Shown here piece after piece: positions 10,913 to 33,507 of a DNA stretch of 64,000 nt (positions are counted from its first letter, which is position 1; each line of letters begins with the position of its first letter). The position numbers and the translations under genes were made by a program. This DNA is from a virus. Where the stretch lies: positions 1-64,000 of the IMG/VR virus record IMGVR_UViG_3300027833_000015, one strand, 5' to 3'. A model generated the notes under the pieces. That model saw only the letters and a list, made by a program, of their open reading frames with translations, did not search any database and had not been told where the DNA came from.

Positions 10913-11541
10913 ATAAATGTATCATCATAGTTGAAGTATGGGGTTTCTATATCATGATCAAGTCTAAATTCTAGCACAGCATGGCGAGTCTCCCTCTTGT
11001 CATAGTCGTGACCTATAATCAGACCACCTTGCTTTATCTTGGGATACCAAGCATTCATCTCATTCCTGAGTTGCTGCTGCGATAGGTGGGCATCAAAGAA
11101 CACGAAGTCCATTGTTCCATCTTCATACCTCTTTGCTGCTTCGATAGTGTCCACCTCGAGAATAGTTGCGCGGTCAGCACAACCAGACCAATAGATGAAG
11201 TTGATGGCAGTGTTGCGGATAAACTCTATCTGCTTCTGGTCGCGAACCATCTCACCACCACCGACATTATCTACATATGGTTCCCACTTGTCTATACCAA
11301 TCAGTTCATCGACATTGGTGCACACCTGCAACATGGTACAGAAACTGTTTGCTTGGTACAAACCCAACTCAACGCCACGGAGGTTCGGACCATGCGCTGC
11401 TACTGCAAGGACTATTGAGCGATTGCATGGGTACGTTCGTGTGAAGTCATATGTATCCATGCCCTGTGAAAAGACCGCAGGGGTCATCTGATTAGGAGTT
11501 CTCCTGTCTGTATGGGATGGTTTGCCGTATGTGTATATCAT
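10897..11541 (-). CDS. Class I SAM-dependent methyltransferase (Methyltransf_24-like)
   Basis: GVELG, IGID.W, DFVFFDAH, K.GGLIIGHDY. Confidence 0.85.
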   Translation of the reverse strand: MIYTYGKPSHTDRRTPNQMTPAVFSQGMDTYDFTRTYPCNRSIVLAVAAHGPNLRGVELGLYQANSFCTMLQVCTNVDELIGIDKWEPYVDNVGGGEMVRDQKQIEFIRNTAINFIYWSGCADRATILEVDTIEAAKRYEDGTMDFVFFDAHLSQQQLRNEMNAWYPKIKQGGLIIGHDYDKRETRHAVLEFRLDHDIETPYFNYDDTFIWKKA

Positions 11542-12200
11542 AGTGGGTACACCTTGCTGATTACTTCGGCACATGCCTTGGCGATATCCATGTGCTCGAG
11601 TTGAGTTCCGTTTTCACTGCGCAGTTCAATGTAGTGAATCCAAGAGCGCAGGGTGCCATTCATATACAGACGAGATACTGTGTTGCCTTCTGGCAGTACA
11701 CATCGTGCTTGCTCCTTTGCGATACCATGGTCGATTGCCCACTGGTATGCATTCTTCGCTGCGGTTAATACGTGGAGTTGCTGCATCTTCCAGTCTGCGT
11801 CAAGGTGTGAACCCTCTTCGAGTTCTACACTGTTCTGTCTGTTCTTCTCGTCCTGTAGGCGAGCATCACGCAACTCAAACGCTCCACCTACCAGTTCATC
11901 AACAGGATTGGCATATCGCTGACTGAACTCTTGGAATGAGAACGACCTGTGGCGCAGCATCTGTCGTGCTATGTCTCTGGTTGTTTCTATCTCAAGGCAC
12001 ATGCTGACCATTTCAAATGGCGACCAGTGGGCATTCTTCTTCAGGTAGTTCAACAACCTGTCGTTGGTGCTTTGGTTCATCTGGTTTGCTGGGTTGGATA
12101 CTCTCGCGCAGTGTGCAACAAGATCACTTATGCTGTTGTTGGTGAACTCATGGTTGAATGCATCTGCTGCTTTGCTGTAACTGATTAGTTCGACTTTCAT
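11538..12200 (-). CDS. thyX: Flavin-dependent thymidylate synthase
   Basis: HWSPFE, RQMLRHRSFSFQEFSQRY (RHRx7S), AKEQAR.VLP, TQLEH. Confidence 0.97.
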   Translation of the reverse strand: MKVELISYSKAADAFNHEFTNNSISDLVAHCARVSNPANQMNQSTNDRLLNYLKKNAHWSPFEMVSMCLEIETTRDIARQMLRHRSFSFQEFSQRYANPVDELVGGAFELRDARLQDEKNRQNSVELEEGSHLDADWKMQQLHVLTAAKNAYQWAIDHGIAKEQARCVLPEGNTVSRLYMNGTLRSWIHYIELRSENGTQLEHMDIAKACAEVISKVYPL

Positions 12201-13126: not shown

Positions 13127-15655
13127 TTATCCGAAGAAGTCCTCAAGTGATACAGACTCTTCCTCAGTCCAACCAATCGCTTCGAGCACTGGTCGGACAA
13201 CAGCGAGGAATGCCTTGTCGAATTGTTTGTCATAGTCAACATACTTATGTAGACCAAAGTCCTCAGGCAGATAGTCGTAGAACGAGATGATGTTCTGCTT
13301 GATGTGGTTCTTTGGGTTGAGGTAGATGAACTTGATCTTCTCTCCATCCTTGATGGCAGTGTGACGCTTCTCCAGACCACCGTCCTTCAACAACTTGTTA
13401 TATGTCAGGGCACCACGCACGTGGATCGGGCATCCTTTCTTGTATACAGTATTGTGGTCACGCCACTTACCTATGTCCGACACACCACGTGGGAATGCGA
13501 CCTCATGTGGTTGTAGACCGTTGAAGTGCTTGCGGAATAGTTGTATAGCATTCTGCGTGTCCTTCTCTGTACCAGTAATCATGATCTTGAACAAACCCTT
13601 CAGGGCATCACGACAGGAGGCAGGAGTCGATGACTTGACTGCTTCAATGCCCATGATCTTCAGTTTAGGTTTCGCATACTGTACACCCTCATTGTTGTGC
13701 ACGTTCAGGATGTAGCGTTTCTTGGCAGTCCATATACCGTTGTCTGCGATTGCCTCACGACCCATCACCATCTTGTTGTCATAGGCATTCATGTATGTAG
13801 CGAGGTCTTCATATGACTTGGTGAACAGAGGCACGAACTTATCCTTGCCTATCTGGTCGAGCAACTTGACTGTCTGTGCGGTGTCGGTCAATCCCATCTT
13901 CTCGACCAGTGGACCAAAGTTCACATACAGCGAGTCAGTGTCCATGGCAACCACATAGTCGAAGTTGTCCGTACCAACTATCTTGTTCATGTAGTCATTC
14001 ACTGCACGTTCTGCCCAGCGGATAGACAACTGGCCAGACAGCGTGATTGCTTCTGCCATGCGGATGTCGTAGTATCGAAACCACCTGTTAGCGAGTGCGC
14101 CATAAAGTGAGTTCATCATAATTTTAATCGCCATTTGCTGATTGTCGAGTTTGGCGATATCTTTCTCAGCAGCAGCATCACCTGCCTCAACCTGCCCTTG
14201 CAACTTGAGCATGTTCTGTTTGATCTGCTTCCTCTCAGCATATAGACCATGAATGATATTGGGCAACACACCCTGTCCATCCTTGGTGAAGTGTACGCCA
14301 TTAGCAGCAATTGATTCGGAAGGTGATGATGAGTCGGGTCGAGTATGGTCAAGACAGTTGTCGACTGTGACACCAACAGTACGGTTGCCAGAGATAGTCT
14401 CAGGCGACATGTTGTACTGCATGATGAGGTGAGGATACAGAGAGTTCAAGTCAAACGATACCACCCACTTGTGGCGACCGACCTGTGGTTCCTTAACATA
14501 ACCACCAGCGAATGATTCGGCATCGTTTTCTTTCTTGGGAGGTACAACAACCTTGCGCTTACATAGTTCACGATATATGTAGGTGTCCCACAACTGCGTG
14601 GTTCCGAAGGACTCTTGGTAGTTACAACCACCCTTGTATGCTATGGTCATTGCCAGTTCGATCAACCCCAACTTCTCGTCAATGCGCTCAACCAACTGGA
14701 CATCCTTGATGTTATAGTCGATGAACTTCTGGTAGTCTTCCTTGTACAGCGTGTATAGGTTGCCATGCTCCTCATAGGAGAGTTTCTTCTCGCCTAGCAC
14801 CACGTTGGCGATGTGGTCGAGTTTGTACGACTCCTGTACACCAAAGGTCAGGTTGCCAAACTTCTGGAACAACTCATAGTAATCCAACTGCTCAATACCC
14901 ACCATGTCATATGTCTGCATTTCGCGACCCTTGACGTGGATGTTCTTCTCACGGACTACGTTCCACGGAGAATACTTCTTGTATGTGTCACCACCAATCA
15001 TACGCTTCGTGCGGTTGATGAGATATGGGAAGTCGAATCCGCGACAGTTCCAACCAGTGACAACGTCAGGGCAGGTGTCCTTTCCGTTCCAGAAGTTGAC
15101 AAACTTCAACAGCAGGTCGACTTCGCCAGCACACTTGATGAACTTGATGTCAGCAGGGTCAACGTCAATGTGCTTGCTGCACAGTTCAGGGTCATACTCG
15201 TCGAGCAGTGCCCAAATGTAATAGGTTGGTTTGCCATGGTACTTGAGGCAGATAGACTGGACTTCGCGGAGAGCATCAACAGGTTCAGGGAACCCATCAT
15301 CAGAGGCGACCTCGATGTCGATGTCAGCAACCAGCACCTGCTTGGGGTCAAACTGTATCTCGTTGGGGAACTTATCTTGGATGTACTGCGCGGCAAAGTT
15401 GTTATTGCCATGTGCTTCGAGGGAGTCAACATACTCATATCGTTTGCTAAACTCGGTTGCCTCCTTCATGGTATCAAAGGTGACAGGTTTGACGGATCGA
15501 CCGTCCATGGTGCTCCACTCAGTCTTTCCCGCCTGACTGGTGGTCAGATACATCACTGGGTCAAACGTGTCACGGAACTGTTCACGGACACCGTCTTTGT
15601 ACCCACGGTAACAGATGTTGTTACCGATGCGAGATATATTTGTATAGAACTTCAT
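13127..15655 (-). CDS. 43: Family B DNA polymerase (T4 gp43)
   Basis: DIEV exonuclease motif, SFDLNSLYPHL, KIMMNSLYG, DTDS, KKRY; no intein or intron seen. Confidence 0.98.
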   Translation of the reverse strand: MKFYTNISRIGNNICYRGYKDGVREQFRDTFDPVMYLTTSQAGKTEWSTMDGRSVKPVTFDTMKEATEFSKRYEYVDSLEAHGNNNFAAQYIQDKFPNEIQFDPKQVLVADIDIEVASDDGFPEPVDALREVQSICLKYHGKPTYYIWALLDEYDPELCSKHIDVDPADIKFIKCAGEVDLLLKFVNFWNGKDTCPDVVTGWNCRGFDFPYLINRTKRMIGGDTYKKYSPWNVVREKNIHVKGREMQTYDMVGIEQLDYYELFQKFGNLTFGVQESYKLDHIANVVLGEKKLSYEEHGNLYTLYKEDYQKFIDYNIKDVQLVERIDEKLGLIELAMTIAYKGGCNYQESFGTTQLWDTYIYRELCKRKVVVPPKKENDAESFAGGYVKEPQVGRHKWVVSFDLNSLYPHLIMQYNMSPETISGNRTVGVTVDNCLDHTRPDSSSPSESIAANGVHFTKDGQGVLPNIIHGLYAERKQIKQNMLKLQGQVEAGDAAAEKDIAKLDNQQMAIKIMMNSLYGALANRWFRYYDIRMAEAITLSGQLSIRWAERAVNDYMNKIVGTDNFDYVVAMDTDSLYVNFGPLVEKMGLTDTAQTVKLLDQIGKDKFVPLFTKSYEDLATYMNAYDNKMVMGREAIADNGIWTAKKRYILNVHNNEGVQYAKPKLKIMGIEAVKSSTPASCRDALKGLFKIMITGTEKDTQNAIQLFRKHFNGLQPHEVAFPRGVSDIGKWRDHNTVYKKGCPIHVRGALTYNKLLKDGGLEKRHTAIKDGEKIKFIYLNPKNHIKQNIISFYDYLPEDFGLHKYVDYDKQFDKAFLAVVRPVLEAIGWTEEESVSLEDFFG

Positions 15656-20365: not shown

Positions 20366-21040
20366 TTATGCTCCGTATGCAGATGATTTCTCAAGGGCAA
20401 TGTAGTAAACTACATCAATGGTCTTACAGGTGAACTTGCTGATCAACTTCGAAGAGATCTCAACGTCATAGTCGCCAGAGATTAACTTCATGTTGGCAAT
20501 GTTCATGATGAACGTGAACTCAGTTGTGTCGCATGTACCTGGAACAACGATGTCGAATGCGTTTGAAGTGGTGTCCGTGTTGTCTACAACAGAGAGTTGG
20601 ATGCCACCCTCAACAGCAGTGATAGACACTTTGTCGTGACCTAGTGCTGCTGCTGCGCTGCGTACACGCTTGAGGGTTGCTTCGTCCAACGTAAACTTCA
20701 CTTCTGCTTCGGGCATCGGGATGTCCTTGGCAGGTGAGGTCAGGATGCTGACATCACTGTAGAAGTATTTAACACTGGATCGACCAGAGGAGTCAGACAC
20801 CTTCACAGAGTCAGCACCGAAAGCAAGTTCAGGAGCGTCAACAAGACCAAGCACCGAGAGAAATTCGTTGAGATTGTAGATGCCTACGCTCTTGTCGAAA
20901 GACTGCTCGAGATTGGCGACTGCCATCACGTTCTTTGCTTCGGCAATGGTCTTCACAACGTTGCCTTCGTGCAAGACGATATTGTCTTGGATAGAAGCAA
21001 AGTTCTTCAGTACTGCCATGGTGTTTTCATTTAAATTCAT
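20366..21040 (-). CDS. 45: Sliding clamp (gp45)
   Basis: LKNFASI, IYNLNEFLSVL, YYIALE. Confidence 0.96.
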   Translation of the reverse strand: MNLNENTMAVLKNFASIQDNIVLHEGNVVKTIAEAKNVMAVANLEQSFDKSVGIYNLNEFLSVLGLVDAPELAFGADSVKVSDSSGRSSVKYFYSDVSILTSPAKDIPMPEAEVKFTLDEATLKRVRSAAAALGHDKVSITAVEGGIQLSVVDNTDTTSNAFDIVVPGTCDTTEFTFIMNIANMKLISGDYDVEISSKLISKFTCKTIDVVYYIALEKSSAYGA

Positions 21041-22623: not shown

Positions 22624-22716
22624 TTCGACTTCCTCAGTATTTTTCATGATAGTAATTTCTGCATATCTGCAGAGGTTATATCTATACATCATCGGAAGTC
22701 GAGAATTTTTACCCAA

Positions 22717-23850: not shown

Positions 23851-23889
23851 AATATACTTCCTCTTCAATTAAACTTCTAAATCACTCAA

Positions 23890-23960
23890 CTCAGACTATA
23901 TTATCGCTCAATCAGGGTCCAAGAACAAGTTCTAAAAAACCCTGTAGAATCAACAACTTA
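23890..23960 (-). promoter_or_regulatory. Repeated promoter cassette with IHF-like box (copy 1)
   Basis: TAAGTTGTTGATT...AACTTGTTC-N17-GATAAT; aatcaacaactta matches WATCAANNNNTTR. Confidence 0.75.
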
Positions 23961-26240
23961 CGCTATCTGAGACACTATATCCTGCAGCAGTTTACGAGTC
24001 TGCTTGCTGCTCGTAGCAGCGGAGGCGAATGCACGGGATATAGTACCTTTCTTTGCACCAGCAGCGACCTCATCCATCTTGGACGTTTTCTCTTGGAGGT
24101 TCTTGCCCCACAATACATACATCTGGTCATAACCTGGAGTTGGCACGACTGCGTGAGCACCGCTCTTAATTTCTTTCCATACTGAATCACGGTCGATGTA
24201 TGTTCCTGCCAAGTAGCAGCATGAGTTCAGTACACTACTGCGACCACCATCAACTACAAAGTAACCGAGCATCACCGAACCAGTCACGTCCTTGAATATT
24301 TCGAGCAGACGAGCAGTAGCATTGTCGCCACCACGTTGAGTCCTCAAGACGCGATATACTTTCTGGTTGATGGGACTACGAATAGTCACTACAGATGAAT
24401 CATTGCGCATCAAGTAGTTCAGGCGAGTGTTGCCCTGAAGACCATTGTTTACATACGCTGGGTGCGATTGACCATCAGTCAACAGGATAGTGTTTAACTT
24501 GTCCAGTTTGTACTGCTTGCGGAAGGCAACAGCAACAGGCATCATAGCAATGATTGCGCTGTCAAGTGGAGTACCACCCAAAGAGAATATGCGCGCAGGG
24601 TTGTACCCAACACGATTATTCCGTTGCTGCGAGTATGCACCACCAATGAGGTATTTTGCCATTGTAGTCATCTCAGTCTTGGTCATTCTCTCATTGAAGA
24701 TCTCCAACATACGCAGACGTGGATCAGTGAGGATAGTATCCATTGGCATGTTATCCCAGTCACGTGATTGACCACCTGACAGGTTATCAGTGAAACCATA
24801 TACACGGAACGGAACACCGATAGCGCGACAGAAGTTTACCATCAACAGAGTCTGCTTCACTACTGGAAACATCTGCTCCCACATAGAAGAAGACAGATCA
24901 AGTATCATGAGGAAACCGTGGTTCTTGCCTTCAGGTACTGTAGTGACTTTCTTGAAGATGTCGTCTGTTGTTCGGTAGTGGTTCATCTTGAGTGTATCAA
25001 GAGTACCAGTCTTGGATATTTTAGCACGTGCATGCTGTGTAGCAGACTTCTTCATTTCGAATTCTTTGACCATCAGCGCGATAGACTTCTTGGCAGTGGC
25101 ATACCACTTGTTGTATTGCTCTGTACCTGCTTCGAATAATGCGTCACGGTTTGCTAATTGTTCTTTGCGTCTGTAAATTTCAAAATCATCGGGTTTGTCG
25201 CTGATCTTCGCAGCGTGTTCTTCAGGAGTCTCGTGTAGAAGAACACCAGTGGTCAATTCACGCAGGAGTGTCTTGTATCCGTAGAATTGGTTCTCAAAGA
25301 GACCGTGTGCTGGCAGGTTCAGGTTATAAACCTGACGATCAGCATTGGGTGCATGTTGCTGGTCAATAGCGTCACGCAGTGCTTCGTCTGTCTCAGACCG
25401 TGGTTCGTCAGCAGAAGATTTGCCGCCAGTTTCGCCACTTTCTTTGGCGTCATCTTCGCCTTCTTCGTCTGACTCTTCTTCTTCTTCACCACCAGCGTCA
25501 TCGGAAGTAGGATCGCCATCTTCACCCTCACCCTCACCATCTTCTGGAAGATCACTCAAGTCCCAGTCAGATGTTTCGCCATCTTCGTCTTCGCCACTCA
25601 GGTCATCTTCTGACTCATCGTCGCCATCTTCTTGTGCTTGCTGGTCGTCTTCTGCGTCTTGTTTCTGTTGTTCTTCTTTCTGCTTTTTGCAGAAGGCAAA
25701 CAACTCGTCAGTGACTTCAACAACTTCTTCCCAAGTCTCAGTGCCGCCAACCTTGGCGATCCACTGCTGCTCGTCACGGGCAAACTCGACACCGATAGAG
25801 GAACCACATTTGAAGTATGTATTGAGACGGTCAATCAGTCCCGTCTTGTTGATCTGTTCGATATTTTTGCCAAAGAAACCAGCAGCGAGCAGGTCACGGT
25901 ATGATCGAATAAATGATGTGCGAAGTCCAGGGAATTTGCGCTGGATTAGTTTCTCAATGCGTGCATCTTCTACAACATTGAGGAATGACTTGTAACCTGG
26001 ACCAGCATCACATACAGCGTCATGCCAACCTTCTTCTGGAGTAAACAGTGCGTGGCCAACTTCGTGGCCAGTCAGGTGGTCTTCGGTATCTTTGGACATA
26101 TCAGACCACATAGGCAGGGTCAGGATACGGTCACGGACGTTAAATGATGCAGTCTTACAGTTCTCCTGCACTACTGTTATGTTCTCAGCAGCGAGTAGTT
26201 TTGCTAGGACGTTATTTCCGTGTTCTGCTTTCATATACAT
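23958..26240 (-). CDS. CobT-like protein: N-terminal HExxH metallopeptidase-like domain, acidic linker, C-terminal VWA domain
   Basis: HEVGHALFTP, NVVEDARIE, D/E-rich linker, LDLSSSM (MIDAS), GGTPL, LTDG. Confidence 0.88.
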   Translation of the reverse strand: MYMKAEHGNNVLAKLLAAENITVVQENCKTASFNVRDRILTLPMWSDMSKDTEDHLTGHEVGHALFTPEEGWHDAVCDAGPGYKSFLNVVEDARIEKLIQRKFPGLRTSFIRSYRDLLAAGFFGKNIEQINKTGLIDRLNTYFKCGSSIGVEFARDEQQWIAKVGGTETWEEVVEVTDELFAFCKKQKEEQQKQDAEDDQQAQEDGDDESEDDLSGEDEDGETSDWDLSDLPEDGEGEGEDGDPTSDDAGGEEEEESDEEGEDDAKESGETGGKSSADEPRSETDEALRDAIDQQHAPNADRQVYNLNLPAHGLFENQFYGYKTLLRELTTGVLLHETPEEHAAKISDKPDDFEIYRRKEQLANRDALFEAGTEQYNKWYATAKKSIALMVKEFEMKKSATQHARAKISKTGTLDTLKMNHYRTTDDIFKKVTTVPEGKNHGFLMILDLSSSMWEQMFPVVKQTLLMVNFCRAIGVPFRVYGFTDNLSGGQSRDWDNMPMDTILTDPRLRMLEIFNERMTKTEMTTMAKYLIGGAYSQQRNNRVGYNPARIFSLGGTPLDSAIIAMMPVAVAFRKQYKLDKLNTILLTDGQSHPAYVNNGLQGNTRLNYLMRNDSSVVTIRSPINQKVYRVLRTQRGGDNATARLLEIFKDVTGSVMLGYFVVDGGRSSVLNSCCYLAGTYIDRDSVWKEIKSGAHAVVPTPGYDQMYVLWGKNLQEKTSKMDEVAAGAKKGTISRAFASAATSSKQTRKLLQDIVSQIA

Positions 26241-26249
26241 TTCTCCTCA

Positions 26250-26321
26250 ATTCAGACTATATTATCGCACAATTCATGTACAAGAACAAGTTCCAAAAAA
26301 CTGAATAGAATCAACAACTTA
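26250..26321 (-). promoter_or_regulatory. Repeated promoter cassette with IHF-like box (copy 2)
   Basis: Same layout as 23890-23960. Confidence 0.75.
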
Positions 26322-26549
26322 CGCCATCTGCCTGTGGGAATATATGTCCCATTTCTCAACAATTGGTTGTCCGTATGCATCCTCGTCGACTGCGATATAT
26401 GCAACAGTCTTCAACACACGAGCATAGCGGAAACCATCGTTGGTCAGGAGTTTGTGGGGGAATTCCCAAGAGGCAGTGTTCTCGCCTTCATCATTGGGCA
26501 CATAGGTATGAGCACCCTTGACATCTTTCTCAATAAACGATCCAAACAT
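26319..26549 (-). CDS. Conserved hypothetical protein
   Basis: G.F.EK...R.A.VLKTVAYIAVDED..G.P..EKW.I motif; GAGGAG SD. Confidence 0.75.
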   Translation of the reverse strand: MFGSFIEKDVKGAHTYVPNDEGENTASWEFPHKLLTNDGFRYARVLKTVAYIAVDEDAYGQPIVEKWDIYSHRQMA

Positions 26550-26564
26550 AATCTCTCTCCTCAA

Positions 26565-26636
26565 TCAGAACACCTATTATCCCGCAAATAGGGTACAAGG
26601 ACAAGTTCGAGAAAACTGAATGAAATCAACAACTTA
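26565..26636 (-). promoter_or_regulatory. Repeated promoter cassette with IHF-like box (copy 3)
   Basis: TAAGTTGTTGATT...AACTTGTCC-N17-GATAAT. Confidence 0.72.
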
Positions 26637-26876
26637 CTCAATATCGGGAACCACACAGTGATATGTGTGGACTTTCCACGGGACGGTTCCGTATCTGACC
26701 CCGACTCGAACCACAGCGTGACCATCCTTCTCATAAGAACCTCCCGCATCTTCGCACTCAATCTGTGCTGACACACCGATATAGTACGGCACAGAGAGTA
26801 CTGCCACCGCCAAAGCAGGAACACCGAATACCATTGCACGCTCTACCCAGTCGCACTTCTTCCAGAAATTTAACAT
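26634..26876 (-). CDS. Small membrane protein
   Basis: One TM segment followed by C..AGG..C. Confidence 0.6.
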   Translation of the reverse strand: MLNFWKKCDWVERAMVFGVPALAVAVLSVPYYIGVSAQIECEDAGGSYEKDGHAVVRVGVRYGTVPWKVHTYHCVVPDIE

Positions 26877-27421
26877 GTTAGCGAGGATACCAGATAATCG
26901 ACAACGATCTGTGTATCATTTGGTGATTCATGGGGGAACTCAACCACGCAACCGAGTTCAGTACCAAACAGCGTGTGCTGGTCGCCAAACTTCTCGAGGA
27001 TATTCTTGCATTTGGTGCGTGTAGTCTGGATGAATTTCTCAGACTGGTCGGAACCACGCTGCCTGTATCTGCGCTCACGTTCTGCGTCCGATACGGTCAG
27101 GTGGATAATGGTGAGGTCGTCACCTGCTGCTTCGAAGAAACCTGCATTGTTGAGTCGGTCACCCTCACCAATTATGAACTCATCTGGTTTGGTGGAGATC
27201 CACTCAACTGCTTTGGGTGCCACTGCCATACTCAATCGGTCAGTGCCACTGAATGTTTCCTCTTCGGAATATTTGCCAAGGACACGGACGTTCCCTGCCA
27301 CGTGTGTATCAAGCAGGTCAATTGGGCGGTCATGCGTCCACTCACCTTGAGTCTTCATAAACTCTTTCATGATGGTGGACTTGCCAGTTCCAGGAATGCC
27401 AATTAGGTAGATCAGTTTCAT
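26870..27421 (-). CDS. P-loop kinase, putative 5-hydroxymethyluracil-DNA kinase-like
   Basis: GIPGTGKST, LGKY, FSGTDRLSMAV, EGDRL, R..RGS.Q; ATGA-coupled to the transferase. Confidence 0.8.
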   Translation of the reverse strand: MKLIYLIGIPGTGKSTIMKEFMKTQGEWTHDRPIDLLDTHVAGNVRVLGKYSEEETFSGTDRLSMAVAPKAVEWISTKPDEFIIGEGDRLNNAGFFEAAGDDLTIIHLTVSDAERERRYRQRGSDQSEKFIQTTRTKCKNILEKFGDQHTLFGTELGCVVEFPHESPNDTQIVVDYLVSSLTC

Positions 27422-28413
27422 ACAAAGAATGCCTCAAGACCGCCAACAGTGCGATCGTCTGGTTCAAAATTACCTGTGTCAAGAAACAGGTTGTACAGGT
27501 CAGGGTCGACTGTATCCAGCAACCACTTTGACTCCAGTGATTCCTTGCGGGCATCCCACAGTGGTGTCCAGTCGATGCCTTCCCAGTTATCTGCTTCTGC
27601 TTTCTTGATCTCTTCTGCCTGACGGTCAATGTAGAAACCAAGGTAGCGACCACGACTGCGTCGATATAATTTCTTGAAAGAACACAGACTGGTTTCCATA
27701 GCAAAGAAGTCTGCCTTGTCAGCAACGTGCGGATACCGCAACTTCACTTCTTGTAGTATCTCCCTGCCATTTGCTTCAAGGAAGTCAATCTGAGTGGCGT
27801 CGAGTTTCACATTGTTCTTCTTCGAGTCGACCCACTCAGGTTTGTCCATAGCGTAGCACATACCATTGCGATGCGACTTGGATCCACTACGGTCATGGAA
27901 CCACAGACTGTCAACGTCAACATCAATGCCGCACGTCTGCTTGAGTGTCTGTATGTAGAACCAAGTGGTGTAGCGACCAAACTTGTGCCATGAGTTGACC
28001 GTATCCCACAGAGTGTAGAAGTCCTTGACAGGGTCACCAACAAAGTTGGCAGTGATTGCTTCGTGCTGTGTACGGTCACCAACATAGTCCCTGTACGACT
28101 CAAACTGTGCAGGCAGGTGTCCTTTGTTCCACTTGGTGTCAGTCTGGTAACGCAACCGCTTGTAGTTGGTGTTGTTCCAATCGCGTAAACGCTCCAGACC
28201 TACCAACTCCATATCTGGAAATTCGTTCCAAACAACATATGAAGTTGGCCAAAAGTAGGTAGTGCCATATATCCAAGAGATCCACAGACGCTGCTCTGTG
28301 TTGTACTCGAAACGGTCAAAGAAATAATTCTGTAGATACAGTGATGGATCACAGTCTTCGATTTCAAGACCACGACCAAACCACTGAGTGAATATTTCCT
28401 TGCTGTCTGTCAT
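27418..28413 (-). CDS. Amino acid:DNA transferase / aGPT-pyrophosphorylase-like protein (HhH glycosylase-like fold)
   Basis: DCDP, KFGRYTTWFY, ETSLCSFKK, RYLGFY.DR motifs; linked to P-loop kinase. Confidence 0.75.
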   Translation of the reverse strand: MTDSKEIFTQWFGRGLEIEDCDPSLYLQNYFFDRFEYNTEQRLWISWIYGTTYFWPTSYVVWNEFPDMELVGLERLRDWNNTNYKRLRYQTDTKWNKGHLPAQFESYRDYVGDRTQHEAITANFVGDPVKDFYTLWDTVNSWHKFGRYTTWFYIQTLKQTCGIDVDVDSLWFHDRSGSKSHRNGMCYAMDKPEWVDSKKNNVKLDATQIDFLEANGREILQEVKLRYPHVADKADFFAMETSLCSFKKLYRRSRGRYLGFYIDRQAEEIKKAEADNWEGIDWTPLWDARKESLESKWLLDTVDPDLYNLFLDTGNFEPDDRTVGGLEAFFV

Positions 28414-29057
28414 AGAAATGCCTCAAGAGAGAAATGGGTTGGTTCAAATAATGCTTCACGGAACCAGTAGTCGCCCACTGCTTCAATGGCAGTCTCGACC
28501 TTCTCTGTTTTCTTAACACCAAACTTGTGCAGTTCAATGCATTCATCTCTGAGTTTATCAGCAACCTTTTGCGGAGGCAGGGCAACTTCATTGTCTTTGA
28601 TTGCCAACTCACGGAACGTCAACTGCTCGTGCTTGTTTGGAAATATTGGCACGTCACAGCGCAGGGAACCACTGGGGTCAACTGCCCAGAAGATGGTGCC
28701 GTTGCGTTTGTGCCATGTCACTGACGATGGAGTACATGACATCTTCAGTCGCTGCATACCCTGCGTGTGTGCTTCTGCCATCACGTCCCAGTATACAATG
28801 GAAGCGTATCCATTACCTTCTTTGCCTTCAAGCGTGACAATCTCATACAGGTTGGCATACTTTGATCGAGCACTGAATGTGATGAAGACCAGAGCAACTG
28901 GTTCTTCACCATCGAGCAACACAAACGGTGGGTTCTTTGTATAGTTCTTAAATCGAAACCACAGGTTGTGCGACGACTTGAGGAACTTGGTGTTAGTTCC
29001 TTCGGGTTGTTCCGCGATCAGTTTCTCAACTTGCTCTTGGTTGTACCGTGTGATCAT
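28410..29057 (-). CDS. GNAT-fold acyltransferase-like protein
   Basis: NLYEIVT...EGNGYAS (motif A-like), S..WHKRNG. Confidence 0.65.
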   Translation of the reverse strand: MITRYNQEQVEKLIAEQPEGTNTKFLKSSHNLWFRFKNYTKNPPFVLLDGEEPVALVFITFSARSKYANLYEIVTLEGKEGNGYASIVYWDVMAEAHTQGMQRLKMSCTPSSVTWHKRNGTIFWAVDPSGSLRCDVPIFPNKHEQLTFRELAIKDNEVALPPQKVADKLRDECIELHKFGVKKTEKVETAIEAVGDYWFREALFEPTHFSLEAFL

Positions 29058-29728
29058 TGCAAATCTACCAACATGTCGTTTTCTGAAAAGTAAGTGCGGT
29101 CTTCGACCAGTCCACTGTAGTCATTATATATGTACCTGACCATTGGATCGCATTTCACTGCTTTCCCCATGCCAGATCTCTCTATTATATCCGAAGTAGA
29201 TGCAAAGATCAACCCACCAAGGTCAGACGCCATCCACAGTGGACGCTCATGGTTGCGCCATCCTGTCAGATTACCATCCACATCAATGGCGGTCACTGCC
29301 ATAGAACGTTCGCGATACGCCTCGAGGGGAGTGTCTCCTGCCTCGATGCATCGTAGTATCAACTCAGAGTCGTTTTTAGTTTCTGTTTCATATTCCCAAA
29401 CGTCTGGGTCTTGGGAGATAACACCGTTGTGGGCAATTGCCATCTCGCGACCTTGGAATGGTTGGTTGTGTCGCAGGTCAGAGGTAGAGTATCGAATGTG
29501 ACCAATCAGCGTGAGTGTGTCGCCATCAACCCAGTCAGCAACGTTGTACTTGTCCATGAACTTGTCGGCACTGATGCCTTCTTTGATTGTGGTGAGTTTG
29601 CCTTGTTTCAGAAAGGTAACACCCGTGGCATGCTTGCCGCGAATCATGCTCTGTAGAAATAGATTCTTGACCAGAGCGTGGTGTACAGGGCGAATTCTGG
29701 GTATATGTACACCAATTACTCCGCACAT
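29054..29728 (-). CDS. Stand-alone class II (Ntn) glutamine amidotransferase
   Basis: Start reassigned to MCGVIG (Cys1 nucleophile); RG.HATG, GHIRYSTS, NQP, HNGVI, DSE. Confidence 0.88.
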   Translation of the reverse strand: MCGVIGVHIPRIRPVHHALVKNLFLQSMIRGKHATGVTFLKQGKLTTIKEGISADKFMDKYNVADWVDGDTLTLIGHIRYSTSDLRHNQPFQGREMAIAHNGVISQDPDVWEYETETKNDSELILRCIEAGDTPLEAYRERSMAVTAIDVDGNLTGWRNHERPLWMASDLGGLIFASTSDIIERSGMGKAVKCDPMVRYIYNDYSGLVEDRTYFSENDMLVDLQ

Positions 29729-29880
29729 GGTATTTCGATCCACTCATATATGAATTTGGGATATGCAAAGTTTGCTTTGCGGTTGGTGTATGTGGCCACG
29801 AGTGACAGTTGGAAACGCGAGTTGTGTTCAAAGAAAGTCACTGTACCGTTTCTATTCTGTTTGTACCAAATCTTCTTCAC
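29716..29880 (-). CDS. Small hypothetical protein
   Basis: GTG start overlapping DUF3310 stop (GTGA); 54 aa. Confidence 0.4.
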   Translation of the reverse strand: MKKIWYKQNRNGTVTFFEHNSRFQLSLVATYTNRKANFAYPKFIYEWIEIPCAE

Positions 29881-30149
29881 ACACCTTCTTCCAAATCATG
29901 TACGTGCAGGGCAATCAGACCATAGTGCAGAACCTTCAACAAGTCCTTCCTGTTCTTACCTTCCTTCTTGCCATATCGTTGGGTGTACTTGATGACGTTC
30001 CCGAGACAGAAACCTTCACCGTGTCCTGCGTCAATGACAAACTCAGTTGTCTGCACCTTGTCCTGCGAGTAGTGCTGACCATATGTGACATCCACATACT
30101 CTTGGAGTTCTTTGATCAGTGCGTCTTCGTCATACTTATAATCTATCAT
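29877..30149 (-). CDS. DUF3310 / T7 gp1.7-like protein
   Basis: HY, GFCLGNVIKY..RYGKK.G....DL.K..HY. Confidence 0.85.
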   Translation of the reverse strand: MIDYKYDEDALIKELQEYVDVTYGQHYSQDKVQTTEFVIDAGHGEGFCLGNVIKYTQRYGKKEGKNRKDLLKVLHYGLIALHVHDLEEGV

Positions 30150-30156
30150 AATAATC

Positions 30157-31554
30157 CTATCCAAAAAATTCATCAAGAGTACCAGCAACATCGAACGACT
30201 CGGGGTGATACTTTCGAGTCATCTCCTCACCACCGTTGTCAGTCAACCAGTCATACCACTCATTGTCGTCCCACATGCTCGGTGATACACCGTTCCAGTA
30301 TGGTCGCCACAGTTTGTGTTCTTCGTTCAGTCGACGCGAGTCAACGTATGCTCGACGCAGGTGCTCATATTCCCATGTGCCCAACTTCAACATATCTTCG
30401 CGGAAGTAGAACACAAGTGACATACGCATCAGGTCGTCTTCGCCAGAGTCAGGTGCCTCAATTGGAGTGTTAGCATGCATGACGCGCATGTTGTCCACCA
30501 ACAGTAGATCACCTGGACGGATATTGATGGCAGCACGAACTTCAGGGCATACCAACATACCACCCTTCCAGTCTTTCTTACCATCACTGATAACAGTCAG
30601 GTTGCTGAAACCTTCGTTCAACGAACCAGAGTCACGGTGACATGCCATACGCGCATTGCGGTCTTTGGTTGTCGTGTTGACTGTGATGGTAGTGAACGTG
30701 GTGTCTTCACCAATGAGGAACTTTGGATCCATTTGGTCAGCACACTTCTTCTGTCGTGCATGGCGAACTGGTAGCAGGTCAACAAAGGTTTGATCTAGTC
30801 GACGTGCGAACGGATAGCATTTCTCAAACACTTCACGGTTGTGATCAGTGAATGCAGTAGCACGACCATAAGGTATGCGAGGATAACGACCATAGAACCC
30901 AGCAATGCCAGACCAAATAGCAGTGGCATACATAGTATCTGAAATGAATTCTTTGCGTATCTTTGCAACATAAGTCTTTGCTTCCTCGAGTGTCATCACT
31001 CGCAGTTTGGTGAGCAGTAGTGGAAAGAACTCAGTGTATGTACCAAACTCTGGTTCGACTTTGGTGCGCAACCAAACACCACCACGATTCTCATCGTCAT
31101 CTGGTATGGCAGCAAACTCAGCAAGGGCATCAGAACCATCAATATTTGGTGGTTGTCCGTTCTCGAACCATGTCAGGACATTGATCTGGTATTGTGTGAC
31201 CCAGTCGCGATTGCCCTGTGACTCTTCACGTGGTCCCGCTGCCATGCCTCTGTTGTTTGATTCAATAGCAGCATCGAACAGACCAGCATATGCACCGTCT
31301 TGTTCTTCTTGCGTGAAAATGTTTTTACGGAACTTGAAAGCAATTCGATCTTCGTTCAGTCCTTCGTCTTCAACACCAGTGGATGGCATGTAGAAGTCTG
31401 CGTCTTGGTCAACGACAATGTCGAAGTGACTTTCGTCTGGGTATTGACCTTTGAGTGCTTCGGAGTCTTCGATGAACAGGGCAACATATACATCTTGTCC
31501 CTCATCACCAATGCTCTTCTCCCAAGAGCGACCACCTATTGTTACTATATTCAT
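30157..31554 (-). CDS. Tet/JBP-family 2OG-Fe(II) dioxygenase
   Basis: FTTITVN..R.ACHRD.G (HxD), GG.L..PE...A.NIRPGDLLL, HANTPI, RMSLVFYFRE; start MNIVTIGG with GAGG SD. Confidence 0.88.
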   Translation of the reverse strand: MNIVTIGGRSWEKSIGDEGQDVYVALFIEDSEALKGQYPDESHFDIVVDQDADFYMPSTGVEDEGLNEDRIAFKFRKNIFTQEEQDGAYAGLFDAAIESNNRGMAAGPREESQGNRDWVTQYQINVLTWFENGQPPNIDGSDALAEFAAIPDDDENRGGVWLRTKVEPEFGTYTEFFPLLLTKLRVMTLEEAKTYVAKIRKEFISDTMYATAIWSGIAGFYGRYPRIPYGRATAFTDHNREVFEKCYPFARRLDQTFVDLLPVRHARQKKCADQMDPKFLIGEDTTFTTITVNTTTKDRNARMACHRDSGSLNEGFSNLTVISDGKKDWKGGMLVCPEVRAAINIRPGDLLLVDNMRVMHANTPIEAPDSGEDDLMRMSLVFYFREDMLKLGTWEYEHLRRAYVDSRRLNEEHKLWRPYWNGVSPSMWDDNEWYDWLTDNGGEEMTRKYHPESFDVAGTLDEFFG

Positions 31555-31578
31555 TGTTGTTCCTCGAGTAGAGCATAT

Positions 31579-31607
31579 ATTATATAAGAAACGGATTGGG
31601 ATGTCAA
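31579..31607 (-). promoter_or_regulatory. Sigma70-type promoter of the modification operon
   Basis: TTGACA-N17-TATAAT perfect consensus. Confidence 0.8.
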
Positions 31608-31784
31608 CTATAAATCCCACATCGTCAGTCTACCTTCGTACAGACCCCATCGCTGGTGCTTTGTTTCGAGGACGTTTCCGTTGAAGTACAGGATCTTGAC
31701 CTTTGCTGTTCTCATCTCATTATAAAGCGTTGACAGGTCATTATATTTCTCACGCTTTGGTTTGTAGTTTTTAGATTTGCTCAT
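31608..31784 (-). CDS. Small hypothetical protein
   Basis: Own translation MSKSKNYKPKREKYNDL...LTMWDL, 58 aa. Confidence 0.45.
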   Translation of the reverse strand: MSKSKNYKPKREKYNDLSTLYNEMRTAKVKILYFNGNVLETKHQRWGLYEGRLTMWDL

Positions 31785-33507
31785 CGGACACCTTCTTGAT
31801 CTGAGAGAAGTTTTTCACTTTGGCGAATTCGATCTTGGCAGCAAACTTGCCTTCTAGTATCTCACCCTTGTGCGAGATAATGAACACGTTGGTGTCATCG
31901 CCCAACGTGTGGATGATCTTCAACAGGTTATCAATACCAGACTCGTCCAGAGAAGAGTCAAAGGTTTCGTCCAGTATCAACAGGTTGGTGCTGATGCTGT
32001 TCTTCATCTTGGCAATCTGCCTCCACGTGAACAACAATGCCAAGTCGATGCGCTGCTTCTCTCCCTCGGAGAAAGATGCGTATGAGAATGAATCCCTGTG
32101 ACGCGAACGGATAGTTTCTTCGAACTTTTCATCAAGGTCGAAGTGGACATAGAAGTCGAGGATAGACAGGTACTGATTAACCAGTTTGTTGATGACAGGC
32201 AGGTACTGCTTGATCACCTTAGTCTTGATGCCACTGTCTTTGAGCATCTCAGAGATGACCGTATTATATGCTGCTTGGTCATTCATCGTGTTGCGGTGAT
32301 CCATCAACTCGTGGTACTCTTTCATGAGCACGTCATATTCGTTATTCGCAGTTGCGAGGTCAGACGCACCACCACTCAGGGAAGCAATGTCAGCGCGATT
32401 CTTTTCTATGTTCTTATTGTGTGTCGCGATAGTCTGAAGATTGCCCTGTACATTCGTTAACAGAGATTGAACCTCCCTCATCTTCAACTCGTACTCTGTA
32501 ATATTAACAGTCACCTCATCACGGGAGGTTGCAACCTCTGCACCAGCAGACTGTAACTCTGCTGCTTGCTCTTTTGCTGTCTTCAGTTTACTTTCCTTCA
32601 GGGAAACGTCGATGTCTTGGTCGCAGGTCTCACAGTGATCATTCACCTCATAGAATTTAGCAGTCTTGACCAATGCTTTGATCTTTGTATTGAACTCTGA
32701 CTCGAAACCATTGAGTCGGGCGAGTTGCTTGCGTTGATCTTCCAGTAGTGGAGCGATCTCTAGACTTATATCATTCGCCTTGCTTTGGTTGGTCGCATTC
32801 TCACCAACGAGTTGTTCGATCTCAGCAGTAGTCTCAGCAATGTAGTCGTCTTTCTGTTTCTTGGCATCGTGATTCAACTTTGAAATGTCGCGGATGTATT
32901 TCTTCTGCGAGTCAGTCTTGGTTTCGTTTATGGCAATCTTGTGGTACACAGCGTTGACCTGTTCCTTCAACGTTGCGTTCTTCTCTTTGAGCAGACCGTT
33001 CATCTTCGAGAACACACCAATATCCAGCAGGTCTTCAATCACGTCACGACGATTCAGGGCAGACAACTGCATGAATGGCACGAACGATGAGGAACCGAGT
33101 ACAACCACTTGGTGGAAGGTCTTGTGGTTCAACTTGAGGATGTTCTGCTCGAGGACTTTCTGATACTCTTTGTTGTGCGAGTTCTGGTTGATCATCGTAC
33201 CATTGGCATAGATCTCAAACTTGACTGGTTTGATACCGCGCACAACTTTGTACTCTTTGTTGCCTATGGCAAACTCAACCTCAACCTGCATGCCCTTGTT
33301 GTTGATAGAGTTTACCAACTGTGCCTTGCTTATGCTTCTGTGTGACTTACCAAACAGACCATATGATATGGCATCCAGCATAGTCGACTTACCAGCACCG
33401 TTCTGACCAACGATCAGGGTGTGCTCACTTTTGTTCAGGAATATCTCCGTCCAGTTATCTCCCGTTGATAAGAAATTCTTGTATCGGATGGTCTTGAAAA
33501 TAATCAT
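31771..33507 (-). CDS. 46: Recombination ATPase, Rad50/SbcC-like (gp46)
   Basis: GQNGAGKST, CETC zinc hook, FSEGEKQRIDL, LDETFDSSLD. Confidence 0.97.
   Translation of the reverse strand: MIIFKTIRYKNFLSTGDNWTEIFLNKSEHTLIVGQNGAGKSTMLDAISYGLFGKSHRSISKAQLVNSINNKGMQVEVEFAIGNKEYKVVRGIKPVKFEIYANGTMINQNSHNKEYQKVLEQNILKLNHKTFHQVVVLGSSSFVPFMQLSALNRRDVIEDLLDIGVFSKMNGLLKEKNATLKEQVNAVYHKIAINETKTDSQKKYIRDISKLNHDAKKQKDDYIAETTAEIEQLVGENATNQSKANDISLEIAPLLEDQRKQLARLNGFESEFNTKIKALVKTAKFYEVNDHCETCDQDIDVSLKESKLKTAKEQAAELQSAGAEVATSRDEVTVNITEYELKMREVQSLLTNVQGNLQTIATHNKNIEKNRADIASLSGGASDLATANNEYDVLMKEYHELMDHRNTMNDQAAYNTVISEMLKDSGIKTKVIKQYLPVINKLVNQYLSILDFYVHFDLDEKFEETIRSRHRDSFSYASFSEGEKQRIDLALLFTWRQIAKMKNSISTNLLILDETFDSSLDESGIDNLLKIIHTLGDDTNVFIISHKGEILEGKFAAKIEFAKVKNFSQIKKVSDEQI

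Follow-up and report, generated by a model that had tools for sequence, protein, structure and literature searches.

The window analysed here, a stretch of 64,000 nucleotides, comes from an uncultured T4-like phage whose record of 153,883 bp (154 kb) is ~85% complete according to CheckV. It carries seven tightly packed genes on the minus strand, encoding a Tet/JBP dioxygenase (Tet), a DUF3310 protein, a 54-aa product, a class II glutamine amidotransferase (GATase), a GNAT, a member of the amino acid:DNA transferase family (AADT) and a P-loop kinase (Table 1). An original prediction made on this DNA had described them as an operon, and profile searches together with reading of the sequence found all seven on that strand where it had placed them. 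It had also announced a consensus promoter at 31579-31607. Indeed, a perfect TTGACA-17-TATAAT is read there ahead of Tet, and it is the single 12/12 match in the 9 kb scanned (25500-34500). A -35/-10 pair occupies the equivalent place upstream of Tet in the relatives L002, L003, L004 and L009, and a looser one in L008 and L012. A GAGGA ribosome-binding site precedes the true start of Tet, the ATG at 31554. The last four genes were said to be joined by ATGA overlaps, and direct reading of the sequence recovers all three start/stop overlaps (GATase/GNAT, GNAT/AADT and AADT/kinase). The genes lie as an insert with gene 45 on one side and the genes for the gp46/47 recombination nuclease on the other, and they are best explained as an operon of this T4-like phage that is driven by sigma-70 and expressed early.

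Table 1. Features of the operon and related genes in the window.
Feature	Position	Strand	Evidence and remarks
Sigma-70 consensus promoter	31579..31607	-	TTGACA (31607-31602), 17-nt spacer, TATAAT (31584-31579); then ribosome-binding site and Tet start
Tet/JBP-family 5-methylpyrimidine dioxygenase (Tet), 465 aa	30157..31554	-	PF12851, 52.7 bits versus cut-off 34.9
DUF3310 protein, 104 aa	29877..30191	-	PF11753, E 4e-13
54-aa ORF	29716..29880	-	no Pfam or PHROG match
Class II (Ntn) glutamine amidotransferase (GATase), stand-alone, 224 aa	29054..29728	-	GATase_6, 39.2 bits versus 27
GNAT-fold N-acyltransferase, C-terminal helical extension, 215 aa	28410..29057	-	PF00583, 19.4 versus cut-off 20.7 (just below)
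Amino acid:DNA transferase family enzyme (AADT), 331 aa	27418..28413	-	PF18724 (ADDT), E 1.2e-23
P-loop kinase (Ploopntkinase3), 183 aa	26870..27421	-	PF18751, 68.5 bits, E 7e-19
80-aa membrane-type ORF, one hydrophobic helix	26634..26876	-	sequence read
gp45 sliding clamp	20366..21040	-	PF09116, 54-56 bits; may be the platform on which Tet, GNAT and AADT dock
gp43 family B DNA polymerase	13127..15655	-	DNA_pol_B, E 4.5e-31; tail ...SVSLEDFFG, the phage's reference clamp-binding tail
ThyX flavin-dependent thymidylate synthase	11538..12200	-	PF02511, 136.6 bits

Conserved core and accessory genes

Across 13 IMG/VR loci, with GATase identities going down to 38%, Tet, GATase, a GNAT, AADT and the kinase are found together wherever the contig is long enough. 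The same five genes are present in the ParB-type locus L025, in the order ParB-Tet-GATase-GNAT-AADT-kinase. This co-occurrence, L025 included, leads us to consider the five as one selected unit. ParB itself is absent from this genome and from the 13 related T4-like loci.

The DUF3310 gene and the small ORF had also been counted as operon members; both lie outside the conserved core and are missing from wider relatives. The former, which has a domain in common with the nucleotide kinase gp1.7 of T7, is restricted to the closest loci (L002, L003, L004 and L009), and the 54-aa ORF is kept in those same four only, at 49-76% identity. A further ORF of 80 aa, absent from the earlier gene list, overlaps the kinase stop by 7 nt and is found only in L002 (89% identity). 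It is probably the last gene of the transcript, and the next promoter-like cassette begins directly downstream of it. These three ORFs are best explained as lineage-specific passengers.

Metavirome clusters of TET_JBP/5mYOX clade C1 have been published (Lee et al. 2021 NAR, PMC8989533, Fig. 2 sequences 22-25; O'Toole et al. 2026 PNAS, PMC13229309, Fig. 3B), and in them the Pfam set PF12851, PF18751, PF18724 and PF13522/PF13537 is drawn together, as here; L025 has exactly their layout. The statement that such neighbourhoods had been predicted without a known product hence stands only for the product, which, like the role of the GATase, is left open in those papers (PMC8989533, PMC13229309); the cassette itself is already drawn and discussed there. 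The locus studied here differs from these clusters in that it is devoid of ParB, in that its Tet of 465 aa has an insert and a C-terminal extension, and in that three of its enzymes bear polymerase-type clamp tails.

Proposed oxidation and phosphorylation of thymine

The proposal that this phage makes ordinary dTMP is borne out by the presence of ThyX (PF02511, 136.6 bits), which would supply normal dTMP, so that T would be incorporated during replication. In the 153,883-bp record (~85% complete) there was no match to PF00303, PF00145, PF02195 or PF01266, and a ThyA-like hydroxymethylase, a C5-methyltransferase, ParB, an FAD lyase and a gene like gp51 of Pseudomonas phage PaMx11 were all not found. 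The original prediction had named two of these, a C5-methyltransferase (PF00145) and a dUMP hydroxymethylase (PF00303), as findings that would speak against it. Because the 154-kb record is without PF00303, PF00145 and a gp51-like gene, we take Tet to be the source of the hydroxymethyl group.

The Fe/2OG residues of Tet are intact (13 relatives all keep H306/D308, H360 and R377), and compared with the ParB-linked 304-aa form of L025 the protein has an insert of ~90 aa and a C-terminal extension of ~65 aa. The available evidence supports the conversion by Tet of T in DNA to 5-hydroxymethyl-U (5hmU), and we infer its specificity for T rather than 5mC. Phage 5mYOXs of clades C1/C2 are shown T-dioxygenases (PMC13229309), and in the clade C1 papers the lack of a C5-methyltransferase led to the conclusion that T is oxidised in situ (PMC8989533, PMC13229309). 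On the other hand, ParB-less clade C1 enzymes had no detectable activity in an earlier screen (PMC13229309), which counts against this reading of Tet. A cassette hypermodifying cytosine, with 5-methylcytosine as the substrate of the dioxygenase, would have its precedents in the phage clade A/B 5mYOXs that oxidise 5mC and in the T-dioxygenases that take 5mC too in vitro (PMC13229309). Yet the absence of a PF00145 methyltransferase from the 154 kb, the link to kinase and AADT families known from 5hmU chemistry only, and the pairing elsewhere of the GATase-AADT unit with genes for ThyA-like dUMP hydroxymethylases make it extremely improbable.

The kinase matches phrog_800, as does the proven 5-hmdU DNA kinase gp49 of PaMx11, the direct match to gp49 being weak. 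By its sequence it is a probable 5-hmdU DNA kinase, which would turn the 5-hydroxymethyl-U produced by Tet into 5-PmdU.

Proposed installation and capping of the amine

PaMx11 has one of the closest known systems. It incorporates 5hmdU from a ThyA-like enzyme, attaches glycine to it and trims the adduct with an FAD lyase (PMC8989533). The logic running from kinase to AADT, amine and GNAT is common to gp46-gp49 of that phage and to our operon, and both probably lead to one and the same end product (PMC8989533; structures PMC11472151), with Tet and GATase standing here in place of the ThyA-like gene and the FAD lyase. Just as the kinases share one PHROG, AADT and gp46 both match PF18724 and share an E-T-x-x-C catalytic motif: in the alignment, the catalytic E243, T244 and C247 of gp46 face E240, T241 and C244 of AADT. 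BLASTP detects no similarity between AADT and gp46, nor between GNAT and gp48. Furthermore, the glycine-binding W146 and K150 of gp46 correspond to Y148 and F152 in AADT. With these residues replaced and the genome devoid of an FAD lyase, the PaMx11 route is unavailable here.

In the mechanism that we propose, Cys244 of AADT would attack C6, expelling the phosphate and forming an exocyclic methylene, to which ammonia would add to give 5-aminomethyl-dU; this ammonia would be released from glutamine by the GATase, docked on AADT via its active-site face. Related chemistry makes use of amines that are not amino acids: putrescine serves one member of the AADT family, and MnmEG takes glycine or ammonium at a comparable intermediate (PMC8989533). 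In tRNA modification by MnmEG/MnmC (nm5U, cmnm5U) the addition is likewise to the C5 exocyclic methylene of uracil (PMC8989533), although the enzymes are unrelated, the substrate is RNA and the likeness is an analogy only.

The GATase begins with MCGVIG and ends in an invariant DLQ, and none of 14 relatives departs from it at C2, R30, R79, T82, N101-G102 or D120. With GlmS, PurF, AsnB and the Gat-QueC domain of deazaguanine pathways in phages it shares an N-terminal Cys, an oxyanion Asn-Gly and the Arg and Asp motifs that bind glutamine. Unlike these, it stands as a protein of its own (224 aa) that has no synthase domain, and its proposed acceptor site is an enzyme working on a base in polymeric DNA. 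Structural matches of the GATase domain of a homologous fusion comprise the GlmS and PurF glutaminase domains, and also EgtC. Stand-alone class II GATase folds of the EgtC type are gamma-glutamyl hydrolases, not ammonia donors. If the protein were an Ntn amidohydrolase like EgtC, a gamma-glutamyl or glutamine-derived group would first be joined to the base and then cleaved on DNA to leave an amine or a glutamyl adduct, without an ammonia channel. In favour of this, the family is mostly stand-alone (among the best 150 representatives, 147 of 137-257 aa and three fusions of 523-588 aa). We nevertheless judge it very unlikely, since amide nitrogens are poor nucleophiles, ill suited to the AADT step, such a reaction is without precedent on DNA, and the invariant R79 and D120 are, as matched by motif, what we take to be the equivalents of the GlmS/PurF-type residues that grip the free alpha-carboxylate and alpha-amino groups of glutamine.

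Two natural GATase-AADT fusions, P0127 (588 aa) and P0253 (555 aa), share 37% identity. Each is followed by genes of the 5-hmdU kinase family and a ThyA-like gene, and no GNAT or amidoligase family match was found near them. An independent contig from IMG/VR repeats the P0127 junction, again within a single reading frame. Prediction of a complex between our GATase and AADT yielded 0.63, against 0.00 for the best of 3 controls. This mark is reached by 58/80 solved complexes and 2/110 mismatched pairs, counts that hold only roughly here because our own alignments were used. Runs share at least 64% of contacts, with a partner pLDDT of at least 87. The GATase contributes to the predicted interface with residue 1, the R30 loop, 80-82, 103/106, 160-163, 177-180 and its invariant LQ end; AADT contributes with 34-41 and 63-67, two stretches located between the pocket residues D22 and Y49/Y53 and directly after these. 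As modelled, the interface uses conserved residues and runs through the glutaminase active-site face. The AF2 model of a natural fusion has a pTM of only 0.56 and a disordered linker, and leaves a fixed arrangement of the domains unconfirmed.

Other fusions join the GATase to GNAT (P0124, P0125) or to amidoligase (P0123, P0126), and the GATase gene stands beside GNAT or amidoligase, never beside AADT, so the ammonia could go to another partner. AADT might then install a free amino acid or polyamine, as do the characterised PF18724 members, which use glycine, serine or putrescine (PMC8989533), and the GATase would serve later tailoring, amidating an appended carboxylate or acting with GNAT, with an amidated and/or acetylated amino-acid adduct as the final base. 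The Amidoligase_2-like gene added in sister loci, which would need a carboxylate or amine to ligate, fits such a scheme. We consider it unlikely, given that the GATase is kept without amidoligase in seven loci and in this window, and that the two GATase-AADT fusions stand beside kinase and ThyA-like genes only. Instead, these two fusions, the predicted complex through the active-site face, the replaced glycine-contacting residues and the missing FAD lyase support glutamine-derived ammonia feeding AADT.

Of the domain assignments originally put forward for checking, Tet_JBP, ADDT and GATase_6 were recovered by Pfam; that of GNAT falls below the Pfam cut-off and was recovered by structure. Its AF2 model (pLDDT 94.9) has SpeG and other GNAT enzymes as best Foldseek matches (probability 1.0), and many of its 333 metagenomic homologues carry PF00583. 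A role in capping the amine is supported by this fold, by the amine-acetyltransferase-like matches, by conservation in every related locus and by a tail of the type found on proteins that work on DNA; PaMx11 gp48 is the precedent for acetylation of 5-NmdU in DNA (PMC8989533). GNAT would acylate the primary amine, most simply from acetyl-CoA, to give 5-acetylaminomethyl-dU. The base made here is likely this 5-AcNmdU, known from PaMx11 by another route, and the novelty therefore resides in the route, not in the base.

Most likely, then, the operon oxidises thymine in already-copied DNA, swaps the new hydroxyl for a glutamine-derived amino group, and caps it; the product and the acyl donor are what we infer from its genes. 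The complete scheme, a post-replicative, clamp-tethered hypermodification of T in which Tet, the kinase, AADT with ammonia from the GATase, and GNAT would act in succession, seems to us somewhat probable. Each step in the order originally suggested (Tet, kinase, amination by GATase, GNAT) has computational support, and nothing contradictory was found.

Polymerase-type tails on three enzymes

Tet (...GTLDEFFG), GNAT (...FSLEAFL) and AADT (...GGLEAFFV) end in tails of the type carried by the phage's own polymerase. In T4, gp43 (ending ...SLDFLFG) and gp55 carry SLDFL[FY], a known clamp-binding motif (PMC7892883), to which the [ST]L[DE]xF[FL] ends seen here are similar. Other T4 clamp clients are gp33, DNA ligase and alpha-glucosyltransferase, the latter showing that an enzyme which modifies DNA can bind gp45 (PMC13216743). 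In contrast to these clients, the putative clamp-binding tails here are on a dioxygenase, an acyltransferase and an AADT. We consider that Tet, GNAT and AADT probably work while bound to gp45 clamps that stay behind on newly made DNA. Their polymerase-type tails suggest that the clamp may stand in for ParB: gp45 would be the activator in the ParB-less lineage, as ParB is for related T-dioxygenases.

It is possible, if doubtful, that the tails are a lineage-specific sequence habit or a site for another partner, the enzymes working without gp45 and the rest of the pathway remaining intact. The kinase has no such tail although it must act on DNA too, and binding of alpha-glucosyltransferase to gp45 adds little to T4 modification levels (PMC13216743). 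The enrichment in the operon (3/7 genes, hypergeometric P 2.5e-4) is that of a motif defined after the tails had been seen. Against a mere habit, an L[DE]x[aromatic/aliphatic]2 end is present in only 5/928 six-frame ORFs (5/203 greedy gene calls), the bearers besides Tet, GNAT and AADT being the DNA polymerase and a 96-aa ORF, and L025, the ParB-type locus, lacks the tails. Furthermore, these are kept in relatives, and in C48C1 and DLP6 the Tet tail matches that of each phage's own polymerase.

The operon and its place in a T4-like genome

The window is the initial 64 kb of an IMG/VR virus record of 153,883 bp (CheckV completeness ~85%). Pfam searches and inspection of the sequence recovered on the minus strand, over 26870-31607, the gene run of the original prediction, from a Tet/JBP dioxygenase (Tet) to a P-loop kinase. 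Its consensus promoter is a perfect TTGACA-17-TATAAT, the sole 12/12 site within 9 kb, at a position retained in relatives, and the three ATGA overlaps said to join the last four genes can be read directly in the sequence. The stop of the kinase gene is overlapped by an 80-aa membrane-type ORF. Since a repeated promoter cassette comes next, this ORF is probably the last gene transcribed with the operon. This intergenic cassette of ~85 nt (GTTGTTGATT..CAGTTTT..GAACTTGT..-35/-10..GAGGAG) is found in two copies immediately beyond the operon, each ahead of one small gene.

The source phage is T4-like. The upstream neighbours of the operon are gp47 and gp46, and its downstream side holds genes for a CobS-like AAA protein, the gp45 clamp, the gp44 clamp loader, the gp43 polymerase and ThyX. 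This parallels the T4 order 47-46-45-44-62-regA-43, so the hypermodification operon is an insertion into the replication module; in T4, the corresponding place is occupied by a-gt. The CobS-like ATPase (AAA_5/CbbQ_C) adjoins a 760-aa protein that matches phrog_459 (E 8e-172, labelled 'peptidase') and no Pfam family, and the pair is kept immediately downstream of the operon in relatives. Between the ATPase gene and gene 45 we also observed a 532-aa ORF ending in a YadA-type membrane anchor (PF03895, E 7e-13), an unusual cargo in a T4-like phage.

Coordinates of the operon, its surroundings and related features (window positions unless a locus is named)
Feature	Position	Strand	Remarks
Promoter	31607-31579	-	
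Tet_JBP dioxygenase	30157-31554	-	ATG at 31554 preceded by GAGGA
DUF3310 protein	29877-30191	-	E 4e-13
54-aa ORF	29716-29880	-	no family match
Class II glutamine amidotransferase (GATase)	29054-29728	-	N-terminus MCGVIG
C-terminal D-L-Q of the GATase	29054-29062	-	
GNAT	28410-29057	-	fold confirmed by predicted structure
Amino acid:DNA transferase (AADT, PF18724)	27418-28413	-	E 1.2e-23
P-loop kinase (PF18751)	26870-27421	-	E 7e-19
Intergenic cassette, two copies	26240-26330; 26560-26640	-	
760-aa protein	23958-26240	-	phrog_459
CobS-like ATPase	22717-23868	-	383 aa
YadA-anchor ORF	21118-22716	-	532 aa
gp45 clamp	20366-21040		downstream of operon
gp43 polymerase	13127-15655		downstream of operon
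96-aa ORF, outside the window	whole record (G000) 144569-144859 = L019:1070-1360	-	
PF18724 protein of Caulobacter phage Cr30	L017:9021-10250		
AADT of the most distant T4-like relative	L014:5127-6197		
Amidoligase-bearing sister loci	L005:6892-9726; L007; L012; L013; L014		L013 with two Amidoligase_2-like copies

Relatives of the GATase are encoded in 13 IMG/VR loci (38-93% identity), and every contig of sufficient length carries the full set of Tet, GATase, AADT and kinase. A GNAT is found in all these loci, either of the 215-aa type seen in the window or of a 180-aa type, the two being distant homologues (pairwise E 4e-7). The DUF3310 protein, whose domain also occurs in the T7 gp1.7 nucleotide kinase, and the 54-aa ORF are restricted to the four closest loci; since they are absent from most related loci, both appear to be passengers and were set aside as pathway members. 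Five sister loci carry an insertion between GATase and AADT, composed of an Amidoligase_2-like gene, the 180-aa GNAT and a ~433-aa protein without a family, pointing to an adduct of greater complexity in these phages, probably with an amide link. A tblastn search for an amidoligase elsewhere in the genome of the window phage found none. Among 50,697 phage records, neither the operon (megablast) nor its GNAT (tblastn) had a match.

The cassette type itself is already published. Tet-linked clusters were shown by Lee 2021, with amidotransferases listed as co-associated and of unknown function, and acetylaminomethyl-uracil is already known from Pseudomonas phage PaMx11 (PMC8989533); O'Toole 2026 described a ParB-linked clade as 'consistently linked' with GATases, P-loop kinases and AADTs (PMC13229309). 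As far as the literature searched shows, no publication gives the product of the cassette, a role for the GATase or a ParB-less long Tet with clamp tails.

Tet dioxygenase and the probable origin of the hydroxymethyl group

The dioxygenase scores above the PF12851 gathering cut-off (52.7 against 34.9 bits), and its iron triad (H306-x-D308 and H360) and 2-oxoglutarate-binding R377 are invariant across 13 aligned relatives. Its closest cultured relative is that of phage C48C1 (Kyanoviridae, 69% identity), followed by those of Stenotrophomonas phage DLP6 and Caulobacter phage Cr30. In the latter, a protein annotated as hypothetical and encoded ~2 kb downstream of the Tet homologue is a strong match to PF18724 (E 1.3e-52); judging from its genes, Cr30 may offer a system in culture for studying thymine hypermodification that begins with Tet.

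It had been predicted that the phage makes ordinary dTMP through ThyX and oxidizes T once it is in DNA. ThyX is indeed present in the record. The two genes that would speak for other origins of the hydroxymethyl group or other substrates, a ThyA-like dUMP hydroxymethylase and a C5-methyltransferase, were looked for and found nowhere in the ~85%-complete 153,883-bp record, which also holds no relative of PaMx11 gp51. As to the alternative that Tet acts on 5mC, the genomic context points to T as the probable substrate, given that a C5-methyltransferase was not found and that the linked machinery is 5hmU-specific. The same gene pattern led Lee et al. to argue that such Tet enzymes oxidize T in situ (PMC8989533), and T-dioxygenase activity was shown in vitro by O'Toole et al. 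for phage enzymes of the same broad group (PMC13229309).

Members of the ParB-dependent 5mYOX subclass of O'Toole 2026 have a co-located ParB homologue, whereas the Tet of the window lacks one. PF02195 had no match in the genome at E <= 0.1, and the ParB of a ParB-type locus (L025), used as tblastn query against the genome and the related T4-like loci, yielded nothing significant (best E 0.05, over 21 residues). In relatives, small proteins of 169 and 199 aa are encoded between gp46 and Tet; checked as possible cryptic ParBs, they had no family match.

Kinase, transferase and the proposed ammonia step

In the proposed route, 5hmU made by Tet would be phosphorylated to 5-PmdU by the kinase, aminated to 5-NmdU by GATase and AADT and acetylated to 5-AcNmdU by the GNAT. 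The kinase matches PF18751 (68.5 bits) and phrog_800 (E 1.7e-15); PaMx11 gp49, a proven 5-hmdU DNA kinase, also matches phrog_800 (E 5.2e-30). On the PF18724 model (formerly aGPT-Pplase2) the AADT scores 84.5 bits and PaMx11 gp46, a proven glycine:DNA transferase, 97.1 bits. In gp46, C247 is the catalytic Cys, E243 and T244 bind metal, and W146 and K150 bind glycine (PMC11472151). The catalytic residues correspond to E240, T241 and C244 of the window AADT, invariant or nearly so, but in an alignment at only 23% identity the glycine-binding pair is replaced by Y148/F152, which argues for a different nucleophile and not for exclusion from the family. Direct BLASTP comparisons were not significant for the GNAT with PaMx11 gp48, nor for the AADT with gp46 except for a short ETxLC patch, and single-sequence phmmer searches of PDB sequences with AADT, GATase and GNAT gave nothing usable.

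The GATase exceeds the GATase_6 cut-off (39.2 against 27 bits) and keeps all class II motifs: MCGVIG with Cys2, R79, N101-G102 and D120 are invariant. From GlmS and PurF, we take these to be the nucleophilic Cys, the Asn-Gly oxyanion element and the Arg and Asp that bind glutamine. The enzyme stands alone (224 aa), with no covalently fused synthase domain; its family comprises 231 cluster representatives at E <= 1e-30, with lengths of 137-257 aa in 147 of the top 150, and its C-terminal D-L-Q is invariant in nearly all relatives.

The most speculative part of the original prediction, that a glutaminase supplies the amine, gained the most support, from gene fusions, a predicted complex and the absence of the PaMx11 alternative. 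A search for longer relatives found two natural GATase-AADT fusions among metagenomic proteins, P0127 (588 aa) and P0253 (555 aa). Downstream of the P0127 gene come a 5-hmdU DNA kinase gene and a ThyA-like gene, and its junction was seen in one reading frame in a separate IMG/VR contig. P0253, only 37% identical, shares this architecture and adjoins a ThyA-like gene and two HMUD2 genes. Neither fusion has a family match to GNAT, amidoligase or FAD lyase nearby. On the other hand, the GATase is fused elsewhere, in other metagenomic proteins, to GNAT and to amidoligase, and another enzyme may receive its ammonia.

Furthermore, the window AADT and GATase were predicted to form a complex with a score of 0.63 (best of three controls, 0.00). 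Of 80 solved complexes, 58 attained this mark, as did 2 of 110 mismatched pairs; these counts are only rough because the author's own alignments were used. Agreement of contacts between runs was at least 64% and partner pLDDT at least 87, and the prediction supports binding of the two proteins. To our knowledge, no structure has been solved in which a class II GATase is bound to an AADT, so that a pass from a memorized structure seems unlikely. In the predicted complex, the GATase contributes conserved residues of its active-site face and the invariant C-terminal LQ, and the AADT residues 34-41 and 63-67, adjacent in sequence to pocket residues. The AF2 model of the P0127 fusion (pLDDT 76.8, pTM 0.56; unpaired 21-row alignment) has a disordered linker and does not fix the orientation of the domains; in Foldseek its top ranks were all GATase-domain matches, among which the AADT half was not matched to the gp46 structure. 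The route by which PaMx11 reaches a free amine, through glycine and then an FAD lyase, is not available in the window phage, which has no FAD lyase.

The profile and structure searches called for by the original prediction matched Tet_JBP, PF18724 and GATase_6 and confirmed the GNAT fold, with the GNAT sequence itself falling just below the PF00583 cut-off. PF00583 is recorded in many of its 333 homologues, and a search with a GNAT profile gave a single weak match, to an IAA acetyltransferase. The AF2 model (pLDDT 94.9) had 386 PDB matches at E <= 0.001, the best being SpeG-type amine acetyltransferases and other GNATs. A G-x-G loop lies at the expected place in the sequence; acyl-CoA would be the putative donor.

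Clamp-type tails and the proposed role of gp45

We scanned the 928 six-frame ORFs of the whole genome for C-termini in which L[DE]x precedes a pair of hydrophobic or aromatic residues. Five ORFs bear such a tail: the polymerase (SLEDFFG), Tet (TLDEFFG), the GNAT (SLEAFL), the AADT (GLEAFFV) and a 96-aa ORF; GATase, kinase and amidoligase are all without one. The tails of Tet, GNAT and AADT are of the SLDFL type and match the tail of the phage's own polymerase; T4 gp43 ends in SLDFLFG and T4 gp55 carries SLDFLY, and these are known sliding-clamp-binding motifs (PMC7892883). The tails of the three enzymes are kept in relatives, including the 180-aa GNAT type, and each of the Tet tails of C48C1 and DLP6 matches the polymerase tail of its own phage. 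The ParB-type locus L025, which encodes ParB, a short 304-aa Tet, GATase, GNAT, AADT and kinase, has no clamp tails.

ParB is a DNA clamp, and 5mYOX176 needs it only on double-stranded DNA (PMC13229309), which is why we propose, by analogy, that gp45 would take over the role of ParB for Tet in the window phage. A precedent is the T4 alpha-glucosyltransferase, which binds gp45, with a small contribution to T4 modification levels (PMC13216743). Our boldest reading, held tentatively and with the balance somewhat against it, is that a free-standing glutaminase seated on the AADT aminates 5-PmdU in DNA with ammonia from glutamine, while Tet, AADT and GNAT ride gp45 as a substitute for ParB. If true, this would be the first amidotransferase with a DNA base as acceptor, and gp45 would act in T4-like phages as an activator, as the ParB clamp does for related T-dioxygenases. 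The same analogy suggests a reason why some T-dioxygenases were inactive in tests on their own: those of T4-like phages may depend on the sliding clamp of the phage, as their relatives do on ParB.

Thymidine hypermodifications guard phage DNA against restriction enzymes and CRISPR nucleases. They are also a source of enzymes for DNA labelling and sequencing chemistry. For the published Tet-GATase-kinase-AADT metavirome clusters, the product gap is narrowed to a testable prediction of 5-NmdU and then 5-AcNmdU, with glutamine as nitrogen donor; confirmation would give an amine handle on ordinary thymine of existing DNA, making a modified nucleotide unnecessary. We regard the interest as moderate to high because the experimental test on offer is precise and cheap.

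The 96-aa ORF among the five tail bearers, without Pfam or PHROG match, ends in ...NSLEGFM; it could be a clamp client, for instance the late co-activator of gp33 type. The AADT of the most distant T4-like relative has the end ...VSLFDF. This resembles the polymerase tail of RB69 type more than that of T4 type, as though each phage's clamp were tracked by the tails.
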